From a virus (lineage: Duplodnaviria; Heunggongvirae; Uroviricota; Caudoviricetes), in the IMG/VR virus record IMGVR_UViG_2541047802_000008: a stretch of 40,539 nucleotides of DNA. One strand, 5' to 3'. The notes beneath the pieces were generated by a model, which saw nothing but the letters and a program-made list of their open reading frames with translations, made no database searches and was not told the origin of the DNA. The first letter of the stretch is position 1; each line of letters starts with the position of its first letter. The position numbers and the translations under genes are program-made. Below are positions 2,796 through 37,146 of this stretch, in pieces.

Positions 2796-3818
2796 TTACT
2801 CGAATTCTGGACGCATATCGTTAAGCGTCATCATGAATTTTTGGTGATATTCATCACCGAGCTTTTCAGCCATGGTGTTAATTTCATTTTCAGCGCGCTT
2901 GAACATCGTTTTTGCATCTTCAGCAGATGGATCCAGGCTATTAAGTATCGCGATGATATATTCTCGAGCTTCTTCTCGTTCTGAATCTGAAATTGGCGAC
3001 AGGTGTTGACGCTCATCGTCAACTACGGAATATTCACCAGTGATAACAGCTGCGTTATCTTGGCTAAGTCCAGCTTCAGCGCGCTCATCCATAACAACAG
3101 CCTTCTGCATTTCAATAGAAACAGGAAGATATTTGAACAGTCGGCGAATTACTGTTTTTTTAGCCATCTCATCGAAGTGATCAACCCATGGGCCACTGCT
3201 ACCGGCTTTGCTCAGTGCACGAACTTTCTCAACGTCTGCCCGGCTCATAACTTCAAATTGGACTCCGCCATCTTTCAGTCGTGCAACGGCGTAAACGTGC
3301 GTTAATTCTCCGCGGTCACCTGTTTCGCAAGGTAAATGCTCGAGCGTTTCTTCCAGGCCGTATGAGTAGCTGAATTTGTCGTTTGTATGTACGGTACGAG
3401 CCGAGATACTCAGGATCTGCCCAGAGCGGCGGGCAAGGTCAATCATTCCGCGATAGCCGATAATCAGCTGTGCTTCTGTAGATACGGTTTCCCATCTTCC
3501 ATTTACTTTCTGGCGTTTGTCGAACGGTATCAGGTAAGCGTGTCCAAGAGCTCCGCCTGGTTCAAGACCCAATTGGGCACATTGCATAATTGCCCCCAGG
3601 AAGCTGGCTTGGTCGCATGATGCAAGTTTTGGAACCTTTCTGATCTCTGTGGTTGCTATGCGCGCCAGACGGTCTGCTGTCATGTGCTTTGGAAGTGCCA
3701 AAGCCATCTGAGCTTTAATTTTTGGGTCTGCCAGAAGTCCGGCCAGAGTTGTTGGTTTCTCATTATGATGTGCAACTTGGTTACCGGTAGCCGCTGCCTT
3801 AAGTGCATTGATAGACAT
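2796..3818 (-). CDS. recT: RecT-family single-strand annealing recombinase
   Basis: 340-aa translation shares long conserved blocks with Rac RecT (IATTEIRKVP, GLEPG.ALGHAYL.PF, LIIGYRGMIDLARRSGQI, THVYAVARLKDGG.QFEVM, GPWV.H..EMAKKT.IRRLFKYLPVSIE). Confidence 0.92.
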   Translation of the reverse strand: MSINALKAAATGNQVAHHNEKPTTLAGLLADPKIKAQMALALPKHMTADRLARIATTEIRKVPKLASCDQASFLGAIMQCAQLGLEPGGALGHAYLIPFDKRQKVNGRWETVSTEAQLIIGYRGMIDLARRSGQILSISARTVHTNDKFSYSYGLEETLEHLPCETGDRGELTHVYAVARLKDGGVQFEVMSRADVEKVRALSKAGSSGPWVDHFDEMAKKTVIRRLFKYLPVSIEMQKAVVMDERAEAGLSQDNAAVITGEYSVVDDERQHLSPISDSEREEAREYIIAILNSLDPSAEDAKTMFKRAENEINTMAEKLGDEYHQKFMMTLNDMRPEFE

Positions 3819-4727: not shown

Positions 4728-5023
4728 GCCGCGTCCCTCTGCCCATCAAGCTGATCCGCCAGATCCCAGCGCGCTATAATTGCCATTGCCTCGCGCCGGT
4801 AGGCATCCATCAGTTCTTCGAACTCAGGGCTGTCTTTAGCAGCCTCCAGCACTTCCTGACGAACGCCTTTGCCTGTTACAACGTCGAAAGTTGAGGACAG
4901 TTGATGAAGTCGGATGCTCTCAATCAGTTCAACTTGTCGGTCATATAGCTGTTCTGACAGGCGGTAGTCCTTGTCGAATGCCAGCATGATTTTTTGAAGA
5001 TTTTTCTGCTGATTAACGTTCAT
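4724..5023 (-). CDS. Hypothetical early protein (99 aa)
   Basis: ATG at 5023 (MNVNQQ...) with GGGAGGG SD 8 nt upstream; 3' end overlaps the exonuclease start. A possible 33-aa ORF (5026..5127) lies just upstream but has no SD. Confidence 0.5.
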   Translation of the reverse strand: MNVNQQKNLQKIMLAFDKDYRLSEQLYDRQVELIESIRLHQLSSTFDVVTGKGVRQEVLEAAKDSPEFEELMDAYRREAMAIIARWDLADQLDGQRDAA

Positions 5024-5330: not shown

Positions 5331-5915
5331 TTATTGTTTGCTTTTTTCGTTCTGGTTGATGACAAATTCAATGTAACTTTCGATCTTTGCTTTCTCGGTT
5401 TCGGGTAACAATGCGTAGCGTGAGCGGTCATAGTTGATAGTCGCAGGGTCGTGCGGGTGAATCAGTAGTTCATATCCGTGACGCCCGAATGCGGATGCAA
5501 CATTCTCCAGGGTGGAAATGGAAACGCTGACCTCATTGTTTAACAGGCGGCTGATTGTCACCTGGGCGACGCCGGATGCGCGGTGAAGTTTTCCCTGTGT
5601 TGAAAGGTCGCGGCTTTCGCTCATCCAGCGTTCCAGGTTGTGAGCCGCCAGCTGACCAATGTCGCTTGGGCCGACAGGCTGAAAACCTTCCTGAGAAAGC
5701 GAGCGATCGATATCAAGCCAGTTACGGGGTTTATTGGCGGCAGCTTCAATTTTTCGCGCAACCTGGTCGCCGATAACCTTCTTGCCAAGAGCCCAGCGGT
5801 TTACCAGATTTGCCTGAGTTCCAAGTTTTTCTGCCATCCGCGTCTGAACACCATTGAATTCACGGTCGATCAAGTCGTTGAGATTTTGCCTGCGGACGTC
5901 CTGGATACTTTTCAT
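5331..5915 (-). CDS. Prophage repressor candidate: tandem HTH (two XRE/lambda-repressor-like DNA-binding domains), no peptidase S24 autocleavage domain
   Basis: 194 aa; N-terminal RRQNLNDLIDREFNGVQTRMAEKLGTQANLVNRW and a second HTH-like segment SGVAQVTISRLLNNEVSVSISTLENVASAFG; no LexA-like Ser/Lys cleavage module. Divergent from a Cro-like gene, flanked on both sides by operator-like dyads. No SD in the last 12 nt before the ATG (the nearest GAGG is about 15 nt upstream, too far). Confidence 0.7.
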   Translation of the reverse strand: MKSIQDVRRQNLNDLIDREFNGVQTRMAEKLGTQANLVNRWALGKKVIGDQVARKIEAAANKPRNWLDIDRSLSQEGFQPVGPSDIGQLAAHNLERWMSESRDLSTQGKLHRASGVAQVTISRLLNNEVSVSISTLENVASAFGRHGYELLIHPHDPATINYDRSRYALLPETEKAKIESYIEFVINQNEKSKQ

Positions 5916-9713: not shown

Positions 9714-9970
9714 TGGATGTAAAAGAGAAGGTTTTGCAGGTGATGCGTTCCCGGGCTGCCCTGCAAGATAAAGCTCTCGGCGGGGAATATCCATTCAGGA
9801 TGGCAACCTGGAATCTGCGGTTGGCAATGGAGAAGGAATTTCCTGATGAAGAATGGCGTTCGGCAGATTTGCGCAAAATTCTTATGGAGCTGGCTAAAGA
9901 CGGAACAGTATCCAAAGATACCCATGCCAGCCGGATTGGTCAGGCGGTATGGAGACTGGAGGTGAGGTAA
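9710..9970 (+). CDS. Hypothetical protein (86 aa)
   Basis: ATG 9710 overlaps the previous stop (ATGA) with GGAGG upstream; translationally coupled gene chain. Confidence 0.5.
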   Translation: MMDVKEKVLQVMRSRAALQDKALGGEYPFRMATWNLRLAMEKEFPDEEWRSADLRKILMELAKDGTVSKDTHASRIGQAVWRLEVR

Positions 9971-13438: not shown

Positions 13439-13515
13439 TGGCGTGGCATGCAGGATTCGAACCTGCGACCAACCGCTTAGAAGGCGGTTGCTCTGTCCAA
13501 CTGAGCTAATGCCAC
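13439..13515 (-). tRNA. tRNA-Arg (anticodon UCU, reads AGA), phage-encoded, CCA encoded
   Basis: Reverse complement folds as a cloverleaf: acceptor GTGGCAT/ATGCCAC, D-arm GCTC...GAGC, anticodon stem ACCGC/GCGGT with loop CTTCTAA, T-arm GCAGG-TTCGAAT-CCTGC, discriminator G, CCA. Related to but distinct from host argU as recalled. Confidence 0.9.
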
Positions 13516-30821: not shown

Positions 30822-30844
30822 CAAAAAAGCCCGCAGCGCGGGCT
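30822..30844 (-). terminator. Rho-independent terminator ending the minus-strand accessory operon
   Basis: Plus-strand AAAAAA-GCCCGCAGCGCGGGC; on the minus strand the hairpin is followed by U6, immediately 3' of the 30844 stop. Confidence 0.55.
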
Positions 30845-31392
30845 TACTTTTCTTCAGGTTTGTTGTCTTCAGATTTCTTCTTGATGCTTGGTTTTTGTCT
30901 AAGAACGAAAATACCAGCCACTGCAACAACTGTACCGATCACTGTGCCAGCTAGAACTTCATGGCCTGTTAAACCTAATAATGTTGCACAAGCTACTGTA
31001 AAAATAGTTGCACTCAGGCCAAACCACTGCCCACGTTTATCTCTATTAATAGCCCCGTCAAGTGCCTTTTCCTCCATTTTCTGGCGGTGAGCAAACTCCT
31101 TCTCCGTCAGCTGGAAGATGCGTTCGGGGGCATCAGGTAAAATATCCTGATACCCGCGAAGCAGATAGGGGGGAGGAAGCGGACCCTGAAACGCATGGTG
31201 AGCGACAACTATCTCCTGAATTTCAGGGCGATCAAGAACTCTTGTGAAGGCATCTGGGTGTTGAATGATCTCGTTACTTAGCCCTTCCTCAACTTCCTCG
31301 AACTCAGTTTCTTCGTTATCACTTGGTTGCCCAATAGATTTTTGCATATTTGTCGAAGGACATTCCTTTAGCTTCTGGTTTTCCTCTTGCAT
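30844..31392 (-). CDS. Membrane protein (182 aa) with acidic N-terminal region and two C-terminal TM helices (DUF2335-like)
   Basis: C-terminal hydrophobic segments WFGLSATIFTVACATLLGL and LAGTVIGTVVAVAGIFVL followed by a Lys-rich tail; RGQ motif before the first TM. Start at 31392 overlaps the upstream gene by 74 nt; a later start at 31347 is possible. Confidence 0.5.
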   Translation of the reverse strand: MQEENQKLKECPSTNMQKSIGQPSDNEETEFEEVEEGLSNEIIQHPDAFTRVLDRPEIQEIVVAHHAFQGPLPPPYLLRGYQDILPDAPERIFQLTEKEFAHRQKMEEKALDGAINRDKRGQWFGLSATIFTVACATLLGLTGHEVLAGTVIGTVVAVAGIFVLRQKPSIKKKSEDNKPEEK

Positions 31393-31645
31393 TTGAGTTT
31401 TTCCCTGTCACTATTGCCCATTTTCCGCCAGCAGGCGCTGCAATTTTTTTTCCGTTCTTTACTATATATTCAGCATAAACACGATTTTCTGACCGTCTGA
31501 GATCGTCTCCGACCATATTCATGTCTCTTGATATAACTTTGACGACAGAGTCTCGGTTTAAAGCCTTGGCATAGTTGGAGCCAGGAACGATACCCAAAGG
31601 GGTGCCAGACTCTATAGCCAGCTCCTTGACATATCTTCTGCTCAT
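31319..31645 (-). CDS. Hypothetical protein (108 aa)
   Basis: ATG at 31645 with GAGG 6 nt upstream, 22 nt downstream of an operator-like dyad; basic protein, function unknown. Confidence 0.45.
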   Translation of the reverse strand: MSRRYVKELAIESGTPLGIVPGSNYAKALNRDSVVKVISRDMNMVGDDLRRSENRVYAEYIVKNGKKIAAPAGGKWAIVTGKNSNARGKPEAKGMSFDKYAKIYWATK

Positions 31646-31666
31646 ATGAACCTCAACCAATCGACT

Positions 31667-31681
31667 TTACCAATCGGGTAA
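31667..31681. promoter_or_regulatory. Operator-like dyad TTACC-AATCG-GGTAA
   Basis: Perfect dyad between the Ant-like gene and the 31645 gene. Confidence 0.5.
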
Positions 31682-31766: not shown

Positions 31767-32423
31767 TCAGAAGAACCCTGCTTTGTCGTTGATATACTCC
31801 GCGTGGGTCTGGATATCACGCAGGCATTTGCTCACACCGACGATGTAGCAGAACATGGTGGTCAGCTCCGCCGCCGCGCCCGATACGTCGTGCCCGTCGT
31901 CCTGTAACTGGTTCAGCAGATTCATCAGCAGTGAGTGCTCCGTCAGGCCGAGAACACCAGACGGCGAGTGAATCAAACTGCGGTAGCCGGGCTTCAGCGG
32001 GGCGCTGTATTCTTTTTTGTCTTCCAGCTTGATCGCCTCCATAATGGCGGGCATGAAGCCTGACAAGACCTTCTCCACTTTTGTTTCTTGTTGTCTTAAA
32101 CGTTTCTCGCATTCAATGAAGTAGCGTCGCACCTGGCGACCTTTTTCGTTACGCTCGACCATCGCCAGCTCTTTGGCTGTATCAAGGGTGAGGTGGTACT
32201 CTTTGCGGTTGTGGCCGCCTCTACCAGATGTTTGCTTTCCCAAATTGGAAAGCAAAATATAGTCTTGATTTTCAATGAATTCGTATTCTGATATGCGATT
32301 TGTAATCCATGCTGCAAACACCTTTTTAACACCTAAAAAAGCGTGCAGATCGCGGGCATTACAAAGTAGGGCTGTTTCGTTAGATATAGTGCCGTTGAAT
32401 ACGGGGATGAGTTGAGCGTTCAT
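31767..32423 (-). CDS. Ant-like antirepressor candidate (218 aa): N-terminal AntA-like domain plus C-terminal domain shared with the 33574..33831 protein
   Basis: N-terminal [33 protein letters not shown] resembles the AntA/AntB antirepressor N-domain pattern (from memory). The C-terminal ~70 aa align with the 85-aa protein at about 45% identity (IH(S/T)P.GV..L.E.S.LM.LL..L..DG..V.G..AELT...Y......DLQTH). Confidence 0.6.
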
Positions 32424-32580
32424 GATGGCGTCTCCACTTAGCGAATTACATCACCACCGCTGAGACCAATCAGATGGTGGTGAACTGAACGGAGTTGGTC
32501 TTACCGGCCTAAGTGGTACCGGCGTCCTTTCGGACCCCCATTCAGCCCACCATAATTCTGGCATGACTGTGCTATACGCA

Positions 32581-32665
32581 TAAAAAAACCACGTCTGGCG
32601 TGGTATGCGCCACTTAGTAATCCGGGAGACCAATCCCGGCACTGGATTTTGCCAGTGCCCGATTA
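32581..32665 (-). ncRNA. Candidate small RNA or attenuating leader upstream of the Ant-like gene
   Basis: Minus-strand unit: candidate promoter near 32660-32700 (TTTACA-N18-TAGTAA on the minus strand, overlapped by an operator dyad), two adjacent hairpins (32640..32657 and 32622..32639) and an intrinsic terminator (CCACG-CCAGA-CGTGG plus U7, plus-strand 32582..32603). No convincing ORF. Confidence 0.3.
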
Positions 32666-32694
32666 CTATGGCACAAGAGGAGTGCAATGTAAAT

Positions 32695-32709
32695 TTACCG
32701 CAAAGGTAA
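32695..32709. promoter_or_regulatory. Operator-like dyad TTACC-GCAAA-GGTAA
   Basis: Perfect dyad overlapping the candidate promoter of the leader/Ant transcription unit. Confidence 0.5.
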
Positions 32710-32787
32710 TGATAAACGCGAAGAAATATTAAAATCAACCGTATTTGGTTGATTGCGTTTAACGCTTGATCACCTGAAAGCAAGATA

Positions 32788-32802
32788 TTACCTTTAAGGT
32801 AA
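32788..32802. promoter_or_regulatory. Operator-like dyad TTACC-TTTAA-GGTAA
   Basis: Perfect dyad 21 nt upstream of ATG 32823. Confidence 0.5.
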
Positions 32803-32822: not shown

Positions 32823-33551
32823 ATGGAAGTTTTCTGGATAGTTGTTGGTGTGGTTGCGGTGATTATTTACGTTATCAACCAGAACAAGACTAAGATCTCT
32901 GATCGTACGGTCGTTAATCATAACAAAACGATAAAGACCGAAGATGGGGAGATAACGATTAATCGTACACAGGTGATAGAACACACCTCTACTCAGTTTC
33001 AAAAAACTGGAGGTAATGCGCCTAATATTTCCGCACCTCCTGCTTATGATAGTGCGGTAATCCAGACATATTATAAACAGCAGGAGTTAGCAAAAGAGAG
33101 GCAACTGATTCAGCCAAAGCCGTTTACAGCTGAGCTTCCACCTGGAGTGTCAACGCGTCCGGCATATCATGGAAGATTCCCTGGTGATGACATATCGTCT
33201 CAGTCATCTAAAAAAGCACCTCAGGCAGTATCAGAGCCAGCAAGAATACCTTCTGTATCGCCGCCAAAAGAAGAATCAGCTAACAGAGTTTCAAGTGGTA
33301 GCAAGCAGTGCTTGCGATGCAGAATAAACCTACCATATGAAAAATTCAGGAAATCGTCAAAAAATCCAGATGGATTGACTAAGTGGTGTGCAAGGTGTCT
33401 CGATGGCCCAAAGAATACACGCCATATGAAGTGGTGCCCAATTTGTAATGTCCGCAGAAAACGAACAAGCTTTTACCCTAATAATCAAAATGCGGATGGC
33501 TTAATGGCATGGTGCAAAACGTGCTGGGACGAGCACAAAGCGAAACGATAG
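32823..33551 (+). CDS. Membrane-anchored protein (242 aa): N-terminal TM helix, low-complexity linker, two tandem Cys4 zinc-ribbon repeats
   Basis: TM helix FWIVVGVVAVIIYVI; C-terminal repeats C-LRC-x22-WC-ARC and C-PIC-x24-WC-KTC, each with DGL before WC; GAGG SD. Confidence 0.6.
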   Translation: MEVFWIVVGVVAVIIYVINQNKTKISDRTVVNHNKTIKTEDGEITINRTQVIEHTSTQFQKTGGNAPNISAPPAYDSAVIQTYYKQQELAKERQLIQPKPFTAELPPGVSTRPAYHGRFPGDDISSQSSKKAPQAVSEPARIPSVSPPKEESANRVSSGSKQCLRCRINLPYEKFRKSSKNPDGLTKWCARCLDGPKNTRHMKWCPICNVRRKRTSFYPNNQNADGLMAWCKTCWDEHKAKR

Positions 33552-33575
33552 GCCGCTCTTGCGGCCTTTAAATTT
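33551..33575 (+). terminator. Rho-independent terminator after the zinc-ribbon protein gene
   Basis: GGCCGC-TCTT-GCGGCC hairpin followed by TTTAAATTT. Confidence 0.5.
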
Positions 33576-33831
33576 ACCGGGTTTGTTTTCGTAATTGTTC
33601 GGCACAATAGTCGAGATGTGTTTGCAGATCCTGCATAGACATCTGTGAGCTGGTGACGTAGTTAATCAGTGCAGTCAGTTCGGCAAGTGGGCCATCGACA
33701 TTAAATCCATCCTTATCGAGATCCCGGAGTAATTTCATCAAGTGCGATCCCTCCACCAGTGACCTGACGCCTCCCGGCGTGTGAATCCTTTCGGTAAATC
33801 CGTCTTCCAGTGGATAGTGATACTGCTGCAT
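33574..33831 (-). CDS. LexA-controlled small protein (85 aa), paralogue of the Ant-like C-terminal domain; candidate SOS-inducible antirepressor or modulator
   Basis: ATG at 33831 with GGAGAAG SD; a near-consensus LexA box lies 22 nt upstream. The ORF-track start at 33954 would run through the LexA box and operator and is rejected. Confidence 0.6.
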   Translation of the reverse strand: MQQYHYPLEDGFTERIHTPGGVRSLVEGSHLMKLLRDLDKDGFNVDGPLAELTALINYVTSSQMSMQDLQTHLDYCAEQLRKQTR

Positions 33832-33852
33832 CTTATCTTCTCCATGCAATAA

Positions 33853-33868
33853 CTGTATATTTATACAG
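33853..33868. promoter_or_regulatory. LexA (SOS) box CTGTATATTTATACAG
   Basis: With flanks AACTGTATATTTATACAGTA it matches the enterobacterial LexA consensus TACTGTATATATATACAGTA at 18 of 20 positions; a TATAAA -10-like element lies inside the box on the coding (minus) strand. Confidence 0.75.
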
Positions 33869-33907
33869 TAGCAAATAATTTGTTTGCTATCCAGCACGTT
33901 TTGCAAA

Positions 33908-33922
33908 TTACCCGAAAGGTAA
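33908..33922. promoter_or_regulatory. Operator-like dyad TTACC-CGAAA-GGTAA
   Basis: Perfect dyad upstream of the LexA-box promoter, between it and the tailspike gene. Confidence 0.5.
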
Positions 33923-34026
33923 TATCTATTGGTATTTATAGTCTTTTTATCCATATATGGTTTTTCAGGTAATAGAATAACCAGATATGCGGCGCAACGG
34001 GTGCTGCGACTATCTGGAGATTTAAC

Positions 34027-37000
34027 ATGACGGTCTCAACCGAAGTTGACCACAACGAATACACCGGTAACGGCGTTACGACATCGTTTCCGTATACTTT
34101 TCGAATTTTCAGAAAATCAGACCTGGTTGTTCAGGTGTCTGACCTGAACGGAAACGTAACAGAATTGGTTCTGGATACCGGTTATACGGTAACTGGGGCG
34201 GGCACTTATAGTGGCGGTTCTGTGGTTCTTCCGTCTCCGCTTGCTACTGGATGGCGAATTACGATAGATCGTGTGCTTGATGTAGTGCAGGAGACAGACC
34301 TTCGCAATCAGGGAAAATTTTTCCCCGAAGTGCATGAAGATGCCTTTGACTACCTGACGATGCTGATCCAGCAATGTTTTGGGTGGTTCAGACGTGCATT
34401 GATGAAACCATCTTTGCTTGCAAAATATTACGATGCAAAGCAAAACAAAATTTCTAACCTTGCAGATCCATCATTTGAGCAGGACGCTGTAAATAATCGC
34501 TCAATGCGTAATTATGTCGATGCTGCAATCGCCGGGGTTGTTGGTGGTTTTGGTTGGTTTATTCAGTATGGTTCTGGGGCAGTATACCGAACGTTCCAGG
34601 ATAAGATGCGTGATGCTATTAGCCCCAAAGATTTTGGAGCTGTTGGTGATGGTATAAATGACGATTCCACTGCAATAAGCGCGTGCCTTGAAGCCTCATC
34701 TCCAGGTTATAAAATTGACGGATTAGGGCTTACTTTTAAAGTATCAACTCTTCCGGATGTCAGCCGATTTAAAAATGCTCGTTTTTTATTTGAGAGAATA
34801 CCGGGTCAGCCTCTTTTTTATGCTTCTGAAGATTTTATCCAGGGAGAGTTATTTAAAATTACAGATACACCGTGGTACAACGCCTGGACGCAGGATAAAA
34901 CGTTTGTATATGACAATGTCATCTATGCGCCTTTTATGGCTGGAGACCGCCATGGTGTAAATAACCTCCATGTTGCATGGGTTCGCTCAGGAGATGACGG
35001 GAAGACCTGGACAACGCCGGAATGGCTTACAGATTTACATGAAAACTATCCCACAGTTAACTATCACTGCATGAGTATGGGGGTTGTCAGAAATCGCCTT
35101 TTTGCTGTAATTGAGACGCGGACCGTGAGCGGAAATAAACTGCAGGTTGCAGAGTTGTGGGATCGCCCAATGAGTCGCAGCCTTCGCGTTTATGGTGGTA
35201 TAACGAAAGCAGCAAATCAGCAAGTCGCTTATATTCGCATTACTGATCACGGATTATTTGCTGGTGATTTTGTCAACTTCTCAAACTCTGGTGTTACAGG
35301 TGTTACCGGGAATATGACGGTGACTACTGTTATTGATAAAAATACTTTTACAGTTACGACGCAAAATACCCAGGATGTGGATCAGAATAACGAGGGTAGA
35401 TACTGGAGTTTTGGTACATCATTTCACTCGTCACCATGGAGAAAAACCAGTCTTGGAACTATTCCTTCTTTTGTTGACGGAAGCACTCCTGTTACTGAGA
35501 TTCACAGTTTTGCGACGATTAGCGATAACAGTTTTGCTGTTGGCTACCATAATGGTGATATTGGTCCACGCGAGCTTGGGATACTCTATTTCTCTGATGC
35601 TTTCGGTTCTCCTGGTAGCTTTGTTCGCAGACGCATACCTGCAGAATATGAGGCGAATGCATCTGAGCCATGTGTAAAATATTATGATGGCATTCTGTAT
35701 CTGACGACCAGGGGGACATTAAGTACTCAACCCGGTAGTTCATTGCACAGAAGCTCTGATTTAGGTACATCATGGAATTCTCTTCGCTTCCCAAATAATG
35801 TTCATCACTCAAACCTTCCTTTTGCCAAAGTTGGCGATGAGCTGATTATTTTTGGCAGTGAGCGCGCATTTGGTGAGTGGGAAGGAGGAGAACCTGATAA
35901 CCGTTATGCAGGAAACTATCCAAGAACATTTATGACCAGAGTTAACGTCAATGAGTGGAGTCTGGATAATGTAGAGTGGGTTAATGTTACTGATCAGATT
36001 TATCAGGGCGGAATAGTTAACTCTGCGGTTGGTGTTGGTTCAGTTTGTATCAAAGACAACTGGCTGTACTACATTTTCGGTGGGGAAGACTTTCTAAACC
36101 CATGGAGCATAGGGGATAACAACAGAAAATATCCTTATGTTCACGATGGTCACCCGGCTGATTTGTATTGTTTCAGGGTGAAAATTAAACAGGAAGAATT
36201 TGTTTCAAGGGATTTTGCCTACGGAGCCACTCCTAACAGAACGCTTCCTACTTTTATGTCGACGTCAGGCGTGAGGACGGTTCCTGTACCTGTTGATTTC
36301 ACAGATGATGTTGCCGTCCAGTCACTGACTGTCCATGCAGGTACATCAGGACAAGTTCGCGCGGAAGTCAAACTTGAGGGTAATTACGCCATTATTGCGA
36401 AGAAAGTACCGTCTGATGATGTTACCGCTCAGAGATTAATCGTTAGCGGCGGTGAAACAACGTCTTCAGCAGATGGTGCAATGATAACGTTGCATGGTTC
36501 CGGAAGCAGTACTCCACGTCGCGCGGTATATAACGCACTCGAACATCTTTTTGAGAACGGAGATGTTAAACCTTATCTTGATAATGTAAATGCTCTTGGT
36601 GGTCCGGGAAACAGGTTCTCGACAGTTTATCTTGGCTCCAATCCTGTGGTTACCAGTGACGGAACATTAAAGACAGAGCCGGTCTCTCCTGACGAAGCAT
36701 TGCTGGATGCCTGGGGTGACGTCAGGTATATCGCTTATAAATGGCTGAACGCTGTCGCTATAAAGGGGGAAGAAGGGGCGAGGATACATCATGGTGTAAT
36801 CGCGCAGCAACTTCGTGATGTTCTTATTTCTCACGGACTCATGGAAGAAGAAAGCACAACATGCCGCTATGCCTTTCTTTGCTATGACGATTATCCCGCA
36901 GTATATGATGACGTCATTACTGGCCAAAGGGAAATGCCGCTGACTGATAATGACGGGAGCATCATTGTTGATGAGGATGATAATCCAGTGATGGTAATGG

Positions 37001-37146
37001 AAGACATCATTGAGCGCGTTGAAATAACGCCAGCAGGATCTAGATGGGGGGTCAGACCTGATCTCTTATTCTATATCGAGGCAGCATGGCAGCGCAGAGA
37101 AATGGATAAGATAAAAGAGCGGATTCAGTCTCTGGAAGAACGTTAA
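34027..37146 (+). CDS. Tailspike protein: conserved N-terminal particle-binding domain, beta-helix (pectate-lyase-like) domain, C-terminal intramolecular chaperone (S74-like) domain
   Basis: 1039 aa; N-terminal EYTGNGVTTSFPYTF motif; KDFGAVGDGINDDSTAI is the typical beta-helix tailspike motif; C-terminal GARIHHGVIAQQLRDVL matches the autoproteolytic chaperone domain of endosialidase-type spikes. Confidence 0.85.
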   Translation: MTVSTEVDHNEYTGNGVTTSFPYTFRIFRKSDLVVQVSDLNGNVTELVLDTGYTVTGAGTYSGGSVVLPSPLATGWRITIDRVLDVVQETDLRNQGKFFPEVHEDAFDYLTMLIQQCFGWFRRALMKPSLLAKYYDAKQNKISNLADPSFEQDAVNNRSMRNYVDAAIAGVVGGFGWFIQYGSGAVYRTFQDKMRDAISPKDFGAVGDGINDDSTAISACLEASSPGYKIDGLGLTFKVSTLPDVSRFKNARFLFERIPGQPLFYASEDFIQGELFKITDTPWYNAWTQDKTFVYDNVIYAPFMAGDRHGVNNLHVAWVRSGDDGKTWTTPEWLTDLHENYPTVNYHCMSMGVVRNRLFAVIETRTVSGNKLQVAELWDRPMSRSLRVYGGITKAANQQVAYIRITDHGLFAGDFVNFSNSGVTGVTGNMTVTTVIDKNTFTVTTQNTQDVDQNNEGRYWSFGTSFHSSPWRKTSLGTIPSFVDGSTPVTEIHSFATISDNSFAVGYHNGDIGPRELGILYFSDAFGSPGSFVRRRIPAEYEANASEPCVKYYDGILYLTTRGTLSTQPGSSLHRSSDLGTSWNSLRFPNNVHHSNLPFAKVGDELIIFGSERAFGEWEGGEPDNRYAGNYPRTFMTRVNVNEWSLDNVEWVNVTDQIYQGGIVNSAVGVGSVCIKDNWLYYIFGGEDFLNPWSIGDNNRKYPYVHDGHPADLYCFRVKIKQEEFVSRDFAYGATPNRTLPTFMSTSGVRTVPVPVDFTDDVAVQSLTVHAGTSGQVRAEVKLEGNYAIIAKKVPSDDVTAQRLIVSGGETTSSADGAMITLHGSGSSTPRRAVYNALEHLFENGDVKPYLDNVNALGGPGNRFSTVYLGSNPVVTSDGTLKTEPVSPDEALLDAWGDVRYIAYKWLNAVAIKGEEGARIHHGVIAQQLRDVLISHGLMEEESTTCRYAFLCYDDYPAVYDDVITGQREMPLTDNDGSIIVDEDDNPVMVMEDIIERVEITPAGSRWGVRPDLLFYIEAAWQRREMDKIKERIQSLEER

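Follow-up and report, generated by a model that had tools for sequence, protein, structure and literature searches.

IsrK and C4 antisense RNA in the structured leader of a prophage antirepressor gene

The structured leader of about 300 bases 5' of the prophage antirepressor gene ant was identified from its sequence as the small RNA IsrK plus the C4 antisense RNA, both of which are catalogued. It is a real, ordinary and previously unannotated copy of the known P1-type C4/IsrK antirepressor switch. Very probably, the module is an antirepressor control of the immI type, belongs to the P1 c4 / Gifsy-1 isrK family and resides in a phiV10-like (Uetakevirus) prophage of E. coli. The term 'window' is used for the whole stretch of 40,539 nt which was analysed. 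Two unannotated RNA genes and four target sites account for the entire 'empty' antirepressor leader, which settles its annotation, and nothing in the module is unexpected to a specialist in phage RNA. Of 5426 complete E. coli genomes, 430 contain the same segment with at least 80% identity along most of it, and the only annotated feature under the match in those genomes is the Ant CDS. The identity is 100% in, e.g., the E. coli strains SCU-101, TW10722 and FDAARGOS_1285. The initial annotation had implied that the leader is novel; this does not hold, since both RNAs are existing Rfam families.

RNAs and target sites of the leader

The Rfam matches for isrK and C4 adjoin each other, are both located on the ant strand and both exceed the gathering score. 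For isrK (RF01394), 67.7 bits were obtained (gathering score 50) for model positions 1-77 of 77 at 32658..32582, and for C4 (RF01695), 61.2 bits (gathering score 45) for model positions 1-87 of 87 at 32557..32473. Family membership, anatomy, complementarities and their covariation are established at this locus. The coordinates of all features are given in Table 1.

Table 1. Features of the antirepressor control module in the window.
Feature	Position	Strand	Description
Operator-like palindrome TTACCGCAAAGGTAA	32695..32709	.	One base upstream of the -35 element of the IsrK/C4 promoter; putative operator
Sigma-70 promoter-like site	32665..32693	-	-35 TTTACA, 17-nt spacer, TG-extended -10 CATAGT; 9/12 in the consensus scan
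IsrK sRNA (a1b1 element of the C4 system)	32582..32658	-	Hairpin 1, hairpin 2, intrinsic terminator
a1 target site UUGGUCU	32627..32633	-	Loop of IsrK hairpin 2, IsrK positions 26-32; perfect complement of a'
b1 target site CUAAGUGG	32610..32617	-	Single-stranded linker between hairpin 2 and terminator
IsrK intrinsic terminator	32582..32604	-	ACCACG-CCAGA-CGUGGU, then U7; found by scan and part of the isrK model match
C4 antisense RNA gene	32473..32557	-	Rfam RF01695
b' antisense element CCACUUAG	32509..32516	-	Carried in the loop of the second internal C4 hairpin; partner of b1 and b2
a' antisense element AGACCAA	32495..32501	-	Single-stranded joint on the 3' side of the b' hairpin; partner of a1 and a2
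a2-presenting hairpin	32451..32483	-	a2 UUGGUCU in the loop at 32469..32463
b2 target site CUAAGUGG	32441..32434	-	Overlaps the Shine-Dalgarno sequence GGAG at 32435..32432
Antirepressor gene (regulated cargo)	31767..32423	-	218 aa; Pfam AntA PF08346, 4.2e-26

IsrK corresponds to the two adjacent hairpins (32658..32639 and 32638..32623) and the terminator which had been recognized in the initial annotation; a scan recovered the terminator as a stem-loop at 32604..32588 followed by T7. The features of the isrK family are present: a pair of hairpins at the 5' end, then a linker, then an intrinsic terminator ending in a U-tail. This U-tail, typical of Hfq-dependent sRNAs, is the visible Hfq-related trait of IsrK, which may bind Hfq. 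Transcription probably starts near 32658, the first base of hairpin 1, and the promoter geometry (-10 hexamer, 6 nt, hairpin 1) matches that of the annotated P1 promoter P1c4/P51b. The short minus-strand RNA suggested earlier is thus predicted to be IsrK, with a length of ~77 nt and an end near 32582. The model c4-a1b1 (RF03163) gave 39.9 bits at 32671..32619 (E = 3.3e-08), which is below its gathering score of 46.7; the two hairpins match this model, whereas the 5' unpaired part differs. Two related loci (L012 and L018) pass both the c4-a1b1 and the isrK model on the same bases. An anti-terminator pairing of the 3' part of b1 (GUGG) with the 5' arm of the terminator (CCAC) was rejected, as it comprises only 4 bp and was not evident elsewhere by eye. 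Sites of the 15-bp palindrome TTACC-N5-GGTAA were counted in the window, and 11 were found with 0.03 expected. Such a site is also present upstream of the homologous RNA module in phiV10.

The fold of C4 consists of a long outer stem, a GAAA-capped hairpin, a second hairpin carrying b', a single-stranded joint and a 3' end ...CACCACC. Folding of the single sequence yields the expected shape with the GAAA loop, and compensatory changes were found at 16 of 24 pairs in an alignment of 19 sequences including P1. The mature C4 is predicted at 32551..32476 (76 nt) by alignment to the annotated 77-nt C4 of P1, whose ends were taken from the P1 record. C4 has traits resembling an RNase P substrate, namely a tRNA-like stem and the 3' CACCACC aligned with the mature end of P1 C4, and its excision is predicted. 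AGACCAA is complementary to UUGGUCU at 7/7 positions and CCACUUAG to CUAAGUGG at 8/8.

In the ant leader, the 5' arm of the a2 hairpin (32483..32476) is at once the 3' end of C4 and the 3' half of its outer stem. Hence, only one of the two, the a2 hairpin or the outer stem, can form at a time. The inner stem of the a2 hairpin shows covariation among homologous sequences and the hairpin is also readable in P1; it is absent from the minimum-energy fold of the whole leader. A spacer of 8 nt separates GGAG from the ATG of ant at 32423. The antirepressor matches phrog_377 'anti-repressor Ant' (2.8e-66) and its RefSeq name is 'phage antirepressor Ant'. No icd-like ORF was found between C4 and ant, and b2 with the Shine-Dalgarno sequence leads straight into the 218-aa AntA gene. 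Upstream of the promoter, a divergent 242-aa gene, a 126-aa gene and the endosialidase tailspike gene are located; antQ was not found among the neighbouring genes examined. For vB_EcoP_ZX5, a phage of the same genus, overexpression of the Bro-N-type antirepressor resulted in a ~1000-fold lower prophage titre with an unchanged total phage titre (PMC9782041).

Sequence motifs and their covariation in related loci

All motifs, hairpins and the terminator reported in the initial annotation were recovered at their positions and are above chance. The 10-mer GAGACCAATC occurs exactly twice in the 40.5-kb window (32462..32471 and 32626..32635; 0.06 expected), both times in a hairpin loop as claimed. 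The 8-mer CCACTTAG is present on the plus strand at 32434..32441 and 32610..32617 and on the minus strand at 32509..32516; with a further minus-strand match at 33379..33386, the window contains four (0.76 expected). The 8-bp hairpin at 32483..32451 is readable in the sequence, and 39 of the 40 distinct homologous sequences share it. The minus-strand RNA 32670..32410 is indeed highly structured, with a folding energy of -106.2 kcal/mol compared to -80.6 ± 5.0 for shuffled sequences (z = -5.1). The complementarity of CTAAGTGG and CCACTTAG is the functional core of the module. That the complement lies between the two copies of the 8-mer had been noticed, but not that it is the loop element b' of a C4 RNA of ~76 nt. 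Likewise, the duplicated 10-mer had been seen, which holds the a1 and a2 sites, but its pairing partner a' (32501..32495) was missed.

Covariation was determined in a set of 45 distinct IsrK+C4 loci from IMG/VR. The regular expression used for this set required C4 at most 70 nt from the terminator, and the pairing elements were read by position. In 44 of the 45 loci, a' is complementary to both a1 and a2 at 7/7 positions (non-cognate pairings 0.5-0.8%). For b' and b2, 8/8 positions are complementary in 35 loci and at least 7/8 in 44 (non-cognate 1.75%). The a1 element begins at IsrK position 26 in 44 of 44 scored loci and co-varies with a', and b2 adjoins an SD-like purine run and a start codon in every locus. 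Altogether, 10 a-types, 28 b-types and 34 combinations of them are present. A chance origin of the 8-mer complementarity, which had been considered, is ruled out because it co-varies across related loci; the check across homologous prophages proposed in the same place found the 8-bp hairpin conserved and the motif pairings co-varying. Judged by these alignments, the a/b sequence pairs appear to behave as exchangeable specificity determinants, and they could serve to predict prophage cross-immunity at the antirepressor level.

A covariance model built here detects C4 in 108 of 120 loci with the IsrK pattern, and all but one of the remaining loci without C4 are chance matches of the pattern or contigs ending early. 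IsrK-pattern loci outside the set of 45 also carry C4, farther downstream of the terminator; loci with a more distant C4 were left out of the covariation counts. When a guessed IsrK pattern was compared to genome contigs, only two Franconibacter contigs matched.

Proposed mode of action and alternative explanations

The likeliest mechanism, which we hold with considerable confidence, is that processed C4 blocks the translation of ant at a2/b2 and that IsrK counteracts C4 by means of a1/b1. Transcription start, processing, and direction and size of the effects at this locus are what we infer. A single promoter near 32693..32665 would start the transcript at ~32658. The majority of transcripts would end at the intrinsic terminator, which gives the ~77-nt IsrK with the target mimics a1 (loop) and b1 (single-stranded), and transcripts reading through would extend over the C4 precursor and the leader of ant. 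Excision of C4 (~76 nt, 32551..32476) would presumably proceed as in P1, where the 5' end is made by RNase P. The joint a' and the loop b' of processed C4 would then bind a2 and b2 of the ant leader. Since the Shine-Dalgarno sequence is overlapped by b2, the ribosome would be shut out, the antirepressor would not be made and the prophage repressor would stay active. IsrK bears both target sites of the ant leader and would, therefore, compete for C4; a higher ratio of IsrK to C4 should release the ribosome-binding site of ant and favour induction. The riboregulation by base-pairing at the Shine-Dalgarno sequence which had been suggested for the antirepressor was right in kind.

In the P1 record, c4 is annotated as a repressor of icd/ant translation via a2/b2. 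In Gifsy-1, IsrK supplied in trans increased the translation of anrP >100-fold, and IsrK-G28A or IsrK-G31A in trans did not (PMC4825925). In the double mutants G28A+C162U and G31A+C159U, the RNA returned to the wild-type conformer and the raised expression of anrP was reduced in part (PMC4825925). Some results count against this best explanation. The a1 mutations G28A and G31A in cis raised the basal translation of anrP (PMC4825925), which is the opposite of what a pure decoy model predicts. The authors of the Gifsy-1 study invoke the upstream orf45 and alternative structures, not a direct occlusion of the anrP Shine-Dalgarno sequence (PMC4825925). Furthermore, the c4-a1b1 model is below its gathering score, and P1 acts via icd, which is absent here.

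If C4 acted on nascent a1/b1 and a2/b2 to promote termination at the IsrK terminator, or by Rho in the ant leader, transcription would be controlled as in P4 and the translation block would be secondary. We regard this as unlikely, although b1 sits 5 nt upstream of the stem of the IsrK terminator, IsrK is called a structural homologue of the P4 SeqA RNA in PMC4825925, where a termination model is discussed, and IsrK in trans raised an anrP transcriptional fusion 8-fold in Gifsy-1 (PMC4825925). The a2 hairpin of the window is not followed by a U-run, and b2 overlaps the Shine-Dalgarno sequence in 45 of 45 loci, which suggests that translation is the main target. Co-expression tests in Gifsy-1 gave no support for STnc1160 as a termination factor (PMC4825925).

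All elements are on a single transcript, in which the a2 hairpin and the C4 outer stem are alternatives that cannot coexist; the long RNA of Gifsy-1 shows alternative conformers (PMC4825925). The leader could, thus, act purely in cis, with b' and a' of the unprocessed transcript folding onto b2 and a2 and sequestering the Shine-Dalgarno sequence without any diffusible C4, which is the 'sequestered SD' of the initial annotation. This has a very low probability, since the tRNA-like outer stem with its 3' CACCACC is conserved and aligns with the mature ends of P1 C4, a stable processed STnc1160 was seen downstream of IsrK in Salmonella, and the large number of a/b specificity types that co-vary agrees with an immunity determinant acting in trans.

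[quoted passage not shown] The window agrees with Gifsy-1 in the isrK model match and in the placement of a1 and a', and mutations of the orf45 start codon and stop lowered the IsrK-dependent translation of anrP in Gifsy-1 (PMC4825925). The equivalent of orf45 was sought in the window and is absent: the ORF from the corresponding AUG (32553) has three codons (AUG GUG GGC UGA), by which coupling is already contradicted here. The length of this ORF ranges from 3 to 76 codons across the 45 loci, and ant possesses its own Shine-Dalgarno sequence, overlapped by b2. For orf45 itself, the nucleotide sequence is conserved and the amino acid sequence is not, according to its authors (PMC4825925). Hence, we hardly give this explanation any weight for the window.

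That the leader encodes a protein, either in the open 110-aa TTG frame (32451..32783) or as the 'hypothetical protein' features placed under the match in TL-2011b and other phage records, was dismissed as having a negligible probability: the frame has no Pfam match and runs across promoter and terminator, the indels in homologues are not multiples of three (the homologous C4 segment is 73 to 82 nt long) and substitutions in RNA stems are compensatory, in agreement with the initial statement that there is no credible ORF. An antisense RNA from the opposite strand, similar to sar, was dismissed as well, since the promoter scan found no plus-strand promoter in the leader; the sole plus-strand promoter-like site nearby lies inside ant at 32017..32045.

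Comparison with known systems

The immI region of P1 and P7, with the c4 antisense RNA, icd and ant1/ant2, was reportedly described by Citron and Schuster in 1990. The c4 system of these phages is also covered in PMC7313666, and the P1 annotation used is that of NC_005856. The arrangement had been thought to differ from P1 c4. This was not confirmed, as the order is the same in both: promoter, two hairpins with a1 in the loop of the second, b1, a terminator-like hairpin, C4, the a2 hairpin loop, b2 on the Shine-Dalgarno sequence and the start codon, with all elements on the strand of the target. In P1, a1 has 7 nt, b1 8 nt and C4 77 nt, a2 lies just 3' of C4, and the 8-nt b2 ends 10 nt before the start codon; the lengths of the pairing elements (7 + 8 nt) and the distance from b2 to the start match those in the window. 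The operator at the promoter is Oc4 in P1; in the window, the palindrome is a putative one. P1 itself scores 68.8 bits with C4, 51.0 with c4-a1b1 and 35.1 with isrK; the a1b1 element of the window reaches 67.7 bits with isrK because its terminator is stronger. P1 acts through icd, a small upstream ORF, whereas the first regulated gene in the window is the antirepressor itself. The antirepressor is of the AntA type in the window and of the KilAC/ANT type in P1, and the carriers are the prophage of a phiV10-like podovirus and a plasmid prophage, respectively.

The locus isrK - orf45/STnc1160 - anrP of the Salmonella prophage Gifsy-1 was described by Hershko-Shalev et al. 2016 (PMC4825925). Its sequence was taken from S7 Fig of that paper and seems to be one G short after +121, judged by the mutation numbering in the paper. 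The IsrK RNAs of Gifsy-1 and the window belong to the same Rfam family, and order, element lengths and spacing match. In Gifsy-1, a1 is at 26-32 (G28, G31) and a' at 158-164 (C159, C162), and the positions in the window are the same. In both, C4 starts at AUGG near +106/107, a2 is located in a CACCACC/GGUGGUG hairpin and b2 adjoins the Shine-Dalgarno sequence of the antirepressor. The specificity letters differ, with a being UUGGUCU in the window and UUGGCGU in Gifsy-1, and b being CUAAGUGG and AUCACCG, respectively. Gifsy-1 has orf45, which runs across the C4 region and whose stop overlaps the antirepressor start, and upstream the antiterminator gene antQ, which is the downstream effector of the circuit, whereas the window has neither orf45 nor an adjoining antQ. 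A blastn search of the phage collection with the isrK Rfam consensus gave no Gifsy-1 record, and the positional screen of related loci gave none either.

In APSE phages of Hamiltonella, a pair of isrK and C4 sRNAs is annotated (Rouil et al. 2020, PMC7313666; LR794147). As in the window, C4 directly follows IsrK, a' and b' are annotated and the pair lies upstream of an antirepressor-like gene. The cargo is of the Bro-N type and the DNA identity is ~72% over 180 nt. The labels of the APSE record are swapped relative to the P1 target order followed here, with a' standing for the loop element and b' for the joint element. The CI RNA of P4 with seqA/seqC shares with the module a processed antisense RNA between two target copies on one transcript. 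Pairing in P4 causes premature termination of transcription (described in PMC4825925), whereas b2 of the window overlaps the ribosome-binding site.

A likeness to P22 sar had also been suggested and applies to the small RNA blocking antirepressor translation and to the immI region beside the tailspike gene, but not to the arrangement. In P22, sar is a true cis-antisense RNA: it is transcribed across the start of ant from the other strand, and Arc and Mnt act as co-regulators. It pairs with the ant mRNA (PMC12197685). In contrast, the antisense elements of the window are short, of the trans type and all located on the same strand as ant, and no promoter for the other strand was detected in the leader by the scan.

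Taken jointly, IsrK (RF01394), c4-a1b1 (RF03163) and orf45/STnc1160 of Gifsy-1 may be one P1-type module, and phiV10-like podoviruses may have a two-part immunity like P1; we rate the chances of this joint reading as about even. Neither half of it was found stated in text searches of papers on these systems, and a text search of PMC4825925 found no mention of Citron, phage P1 or Rfam. If true, IsrK would be the a1b1 target mimic of C4, orf45 would be the C4 gene, and the a and b letters of this pair of antisense and anti-antisense RNA would make up a combinatorial code of immunity, of which the 45 loci show 34 combinations. In the second half, the immI module would be joined by a repressor whose regulon consists of dispersed TTACC-N5-GGTAA operators, including the one at the IsrK/C4 promoter; the 194-aa HTH protein (5331..5915) is a candidate for binding these sites. 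The accounts of Gifsy-1 IsrK and P1 c4 would then describe the same module, in which coupling via orf45, as published, is not conserved.

IsrK and C4 in the ant leader

In an Rfam scan of the whole window, three matches exceeded the curated thresholds: a tRNA-Arg elsewhere, isrK and C4. The latter two adjoin each other on the minus strand in the leader (the 300 bases before the start) of the antirepressor gene ant (218 aa, 31767..32423), the site of the predicted RNA elements a1 and b1 (in IsrK), a' and b' (in C4) and a2 and b2 (before ant). The leader was rejected as a protein-coding region.

The initial annotation had described a highly structured leader with an intrinsic terminator, a 10-mer duplicated in two hairpin loops, and an 8-mer present twice with its exact complement in between. 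The 10-mer GAGACCAATC has only two copies in the whole window (32462..32471 and 32626..32635; 0.06 expected), both in hairpin loops, and its core forms the a2 and a1 loop sites. Motif counting recovered the 8-mer CCACTTAG at the same coordinates: two plus-strand copies (32434..32441, 32610..32617) and one minus-strand copy (32509..32516), with 0.76 matches expected in the window; a fourth copy at 33379 is unrelated. The intervening complement had been seen correctly, but not recognised as the second internal hairpin loop of a C4 RNA gene, and a' had been missed. A consensus scan found the terminator independently (stem-loop 32604..32588, then seven T), and the RNA fold of the leader was better than that of shuffled controls by 5 standard deviations. 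The same type of scan gave a promoter-like site at 32693..32665 (TTTACA, 17 nt, TG-extended CATAGT). Its -10 hexamer lies 6 nt ahead of hairpin 1, exactly as in the annotated P1c4 promoter of phage P1.

Table. RNA elements of the ant leader and dispersed palindromes in the window
Feature	Position	Strand	Remark
isrK RNA (RF01394)	32658..32582	minus	Rfam 67.7 bits, threshold 50; two adjacent hairpins and terminator
C4 antisense RNA (RF01695)	32557..32473	minus	Rfam 61.2 bits, threshold 45
a1 UUGGUCU	32633..32627	minus	loop of IsrK hairpin 2; core of duplicated 10-mer
b1 CUAAGUGG	32617..32610	minus	duplicated 8-mer
b' CCACUUAG	32516..32509	minus	loop of second internal C4 hairpin; complement of b
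a' AGACCAA	32501..32495	minus	single-stranded joint 3' of b' hairpin; complement of a
a2 UUGGUCU	32469..32463	minus	loop of hairpin 32483..32451
b2 CUAAGUGG	32441..32434	minus	overlaps Shine-Dalgarno GGAG, 8 nt before ATG
TTACC-N5-GGTAA, 15 bp each	5197, 5259, 5971, 8295, 8357, 10669, 13838, 31667, 32695, 32788, 33908		
TTACC-N5-GGTAA near-sites	6019, 6356, 10687		

The P1 record (NC_005856) annotates, in this order, promoter P1c4, a1 (7 nt), b1 (8 nt), the 77-nt C4, a2 (7 nt, beginning 4 nt past C4) and b2 (8 nt, ending 10 nt ahead of the start codon of icd, a small ORF before ant). The initial annotation had described the leader as arranged differently from P1 c4; its elements have the same order and lengths, and b2 ends 10 nt from the start codon in both. 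The arrangement is that of P1 and not a separate one, and the leader is a real, functional-looking element in which two known RNA families stand unannotated in this familiar order.

The Rfam model c4-a1b1 also scores in the window (39.9 bits, below its threshold), and the P1 segment scored 68.8 (C4), 51.0 (c4-a1b1) and 35.1 bits (isrK). Since isrK and c4-a1b1 both score in the window and in P1, where their matches overlap (32582..32671 in the window), they model the same two hairpins. In two IMG/VR loci, both exceed the threshold on the same bases (L012, 2299..2389; L018, 6877..6967). The a1b1 motif was described as two covarying hairpins enclosing a1, just 5' of b1, and its authors repeated an earlier proposal that a1/b1 vie with a2/b2 for C4 (Weinberg et al. 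2010; PMC2864571 supplement). In the Rfam table, c4-a1b1 (RF03163) is placed in clan CL00128 and isrK has no clan, though both describe one element.

Covariation among related loci

From IMG/VR, 120 loci matching a degenerate IsrK hairpin 1 pattern were collected; covariation, an initially suggested check, was counted in the 45 distinct loci in which a simple parser located C4. Perfect pairing (7/7) of a' to both a1 and a2 was found in 44 of the 45 loci for cognate elements and in 0.5-0.8% of non-cognate pairings. For b' and b2, pairing was perfect (8/8) in 35 of 45 cognate and 1.75% of non-cognate cases, and at least 7/8 in 44 of 45 cognate cases, non-cognate pairs being counted for 8/8 only. 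The 45 loci carry 10 a-types and 28 b-types in 34 combinations; hence a and b elements reassort. Position 26 of IsrK begins a1 in all scored loci, and b2 adjoins a purine-rich Shine-Dalgarno sequence and start codon in all 45. The anatomy of the module and the covariation of a', b' and their targets are observed in the window and its relatives.

Compensatory changes affect 16 of the 24 pairs of the C4 fold in an alignment including P1. The hairpin that presents a2 can also be read in P1; 39 of 40 distinct sequences keep it, and its inner stem covaries. It shares its 5' arm with the 3' end of C4 and so competes with the foot of the C4 stem. Weinberg et al. (PMC2864571 supplement) noted that a predicted terminator hairpin sometimes has its 5' half in common with the 3' half of the C4 outer stem; this may be the downstream hairpin seen here.

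With a covariance model built from our alignment, C4 was present in 108 of the 120 loci. Of the other 12, seven were chance pattern matches and four were truncated at contig ends, L050 being the last; IsrK and C4 thus form a fixed pair. In L050 (pattern at 4972..4995, plus strand), the terminator region of the IsrK-like element is longer and the C4 model gave no match; a C4-like 5' strand was seen by eye ~120 nt downstream. Two viral contigs hold two complete modules each: L053 (2422..2605 and 3565..3753, ~1.1 kb apart, with differing a/b specificities and an sRNA-Xcc1 match between) and L040 (7101..7333 and 9737..9962). A longer IsrK-to-C4 spacer (~140 nt) occurs in L028 (7978..8039) and L036 (8236..8303); int-alpA RNA on these contigs would fit P4-like satellites.

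Control of ant and comparison with Gifsy-1

The best supported reading is that C4 blocks ant at a2/b2 and IsrK counteracts C4. Transcription would start near 32658; termination at 32582 would yield IsrK, and read-through the C4 precursor with the ant leader. Processed C4, presumably released by RNase P and predicted at 32551..32476 from alignment to the mature P1 RNA, would pair with a2 and b2 and cover the ant Shine-Dalgarno sequence. IsrK, carrying a1 and b1, would titrate C4 and relieve repression; the quantitative behaviour at the window locus we likewise infer. The P1 record annotates repression via a2/b2, and experiments in Gifsy-1 addressed both a1:a' pairing and the activation by IsrK in trans.

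The experimentally studied locus of this Salmonella prophage, isrK - orf45 - anrP (PMC4825925), is by sequence a canonical c4 module (S7 Fig therein): a1 is UUGGCGU (26-32, with G28 and G31), C4 starts at AUGG (+107), a' is ACGCCAA (158-164, with C159 and C162), a2 lies within a CACCACC/GGUGGUG hairpin, and b2 AUCACCGG adjoins GGAGG ahead of the anrP AUG. The window likewise has a1 at positions 26-32 and a' at 158-164. A text search of the paper found neither Citron nor phage P1 nor Rfam. G28A, G31A, C159U and C162U each raised anrP expression; G28A+C162U or G31A+C159U regained the wild-type RNA conformer and partly lowered the raised expression. IsrK in trans raised anrP translation >100-fold, and IsrK-G28A or -G31A had no effect (PMC4825925). 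These genetics are a direct test of the a1:a' helix. The rise caused by a1 mutations in cis (PMC4825925) does not fit a simple decoy model.

Purely cis sequestration of the ant Shine-Dalgarno sequence is less likely in view of the a/b specificity code and of STnc1160, a stable processed RNA over 'orf45' highly expressed in lysogens (PMC4825925). The Gifsy-1 authors liken IsrK to P4 seqA/CI (PMC4825925); a P4-like termination effect or Rho polarity is a minor possibility here. Their mechanism depends on translation of orf45 (PMC4825925), which starts from the AUG at the C4 5' end; such coupling is contradicted and cannot operate in the window, as the equivalent frame has only 3 codons (3 to 76 among the 45 loci) and the authors found orf45 conserved at the nucleotide but not at the amino-acid level (PMC4825925). 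What is added is modest: IsrK, c4-a1b1 and 'orf45' are explicitly equated with parts of immI, the P1 antirepressor control region, and the a/b specificity repertoire is sized.

Prophage context and dispersed palindromes

As a prophage, the window is phiV10-like (Uetakevirus); by megablast, 73% of bases 16000-40539 matched phiv142-3 at 96.5% identity, and the leader is 99% identical. Among 5426 RefSeq E. coli genomes, 465 carry the segment, and nothing but the Ant CDS is annotated under the match. In phiV10 the module has the same place, between virion genes and tail fibre; its record annotates the terminator but neither RNA, whereas APSE phage records annotate both, including the a' and b' regions. 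As the cargo gene varies (AntA in the window, Bro-N in phiV10 and APSE, KilAC/ANT in P1), the RNA module acts like a movable cassette that can serve different antirepressor genes. Overexpression of the Bro-N-type antirepressor of vB_EcoP_ZX5 (same genus) lowered the prophage titre ~1000-fold and left the total phage titre unchanged (PMC9782041).

Several neighbouring features were recorded. The tailspike (34027..37146, plus strand) is a complete endosialidase (E = 1e-233 for the K1 polysialic-acid depolymerase domains). The prophage is phiV10-like in other respects, and its relatives have O-antigen-specific tail fibres. A 126-aa ORF (33574..33954, minus) matches phrog_450, phrog_15539 and phrog_1760, as does the C-terminal third of Ant, and is a stand-alone copy of that domain. 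Divergent from the IsrK promoter, a 242-aa gene (32823..33551, plus) aligns over its whole length with phrog_6762 (1e-150, unknown function); its N-terminus is hydrophobic, and its C-terminus weakly matches endonuclease VII / Lar-like / HNH families. It lies in a swapped segment, since in distant-mode blastn from 32800 the phiv142-3 alignment starts only at 32715. On the minus strand, ant is followed (30844..31660) by a 113-aa ORF of unknown function (phrog_10654) and by a 182-aa membrane protein with DUF2335 (phrog_3996, 'moron' category). The tRNA-Arg (anticodon UCU; 13439..13515, minus) lies inside the prophage.

The 15-bp palindrome TTACC-N5-GGTAA has 11 copies in the window (0.03 expected) and 8 in phiV10, mostly at homologous positions. 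Copies lie on both sides of a 194-aa HTH repressor gene (5331..5915) and ahead of several operons, some in pairs 62 bp apart. Others lie near the tRNA (13838), within the 5' end of the 126-aa ORF (33908..33922), just upstream of the 242-aa gene (32788..32802), and between ant and the downstream genes (31667..31681), which may therefore be separately controlled. No such palindrome or binding site is mentioned in the vB_EcoP_ZX5 paper (PMC9782041). The copy at 32695..32709 is one base upstream of the -35 element of the IsrK/C4 promoter and immediately follows a second promoter-like site (32738..32709, consensus scan). This recalls P1, in which the C1 operator Oc4 lies at the tandem c4 promoters. 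The set has the look of a regulon with scattered operators, like those for C1 in P1, and suggests that phiV10-like podoviruses may pair a repressor acting at dispersed operators with an immI module, as in P1.
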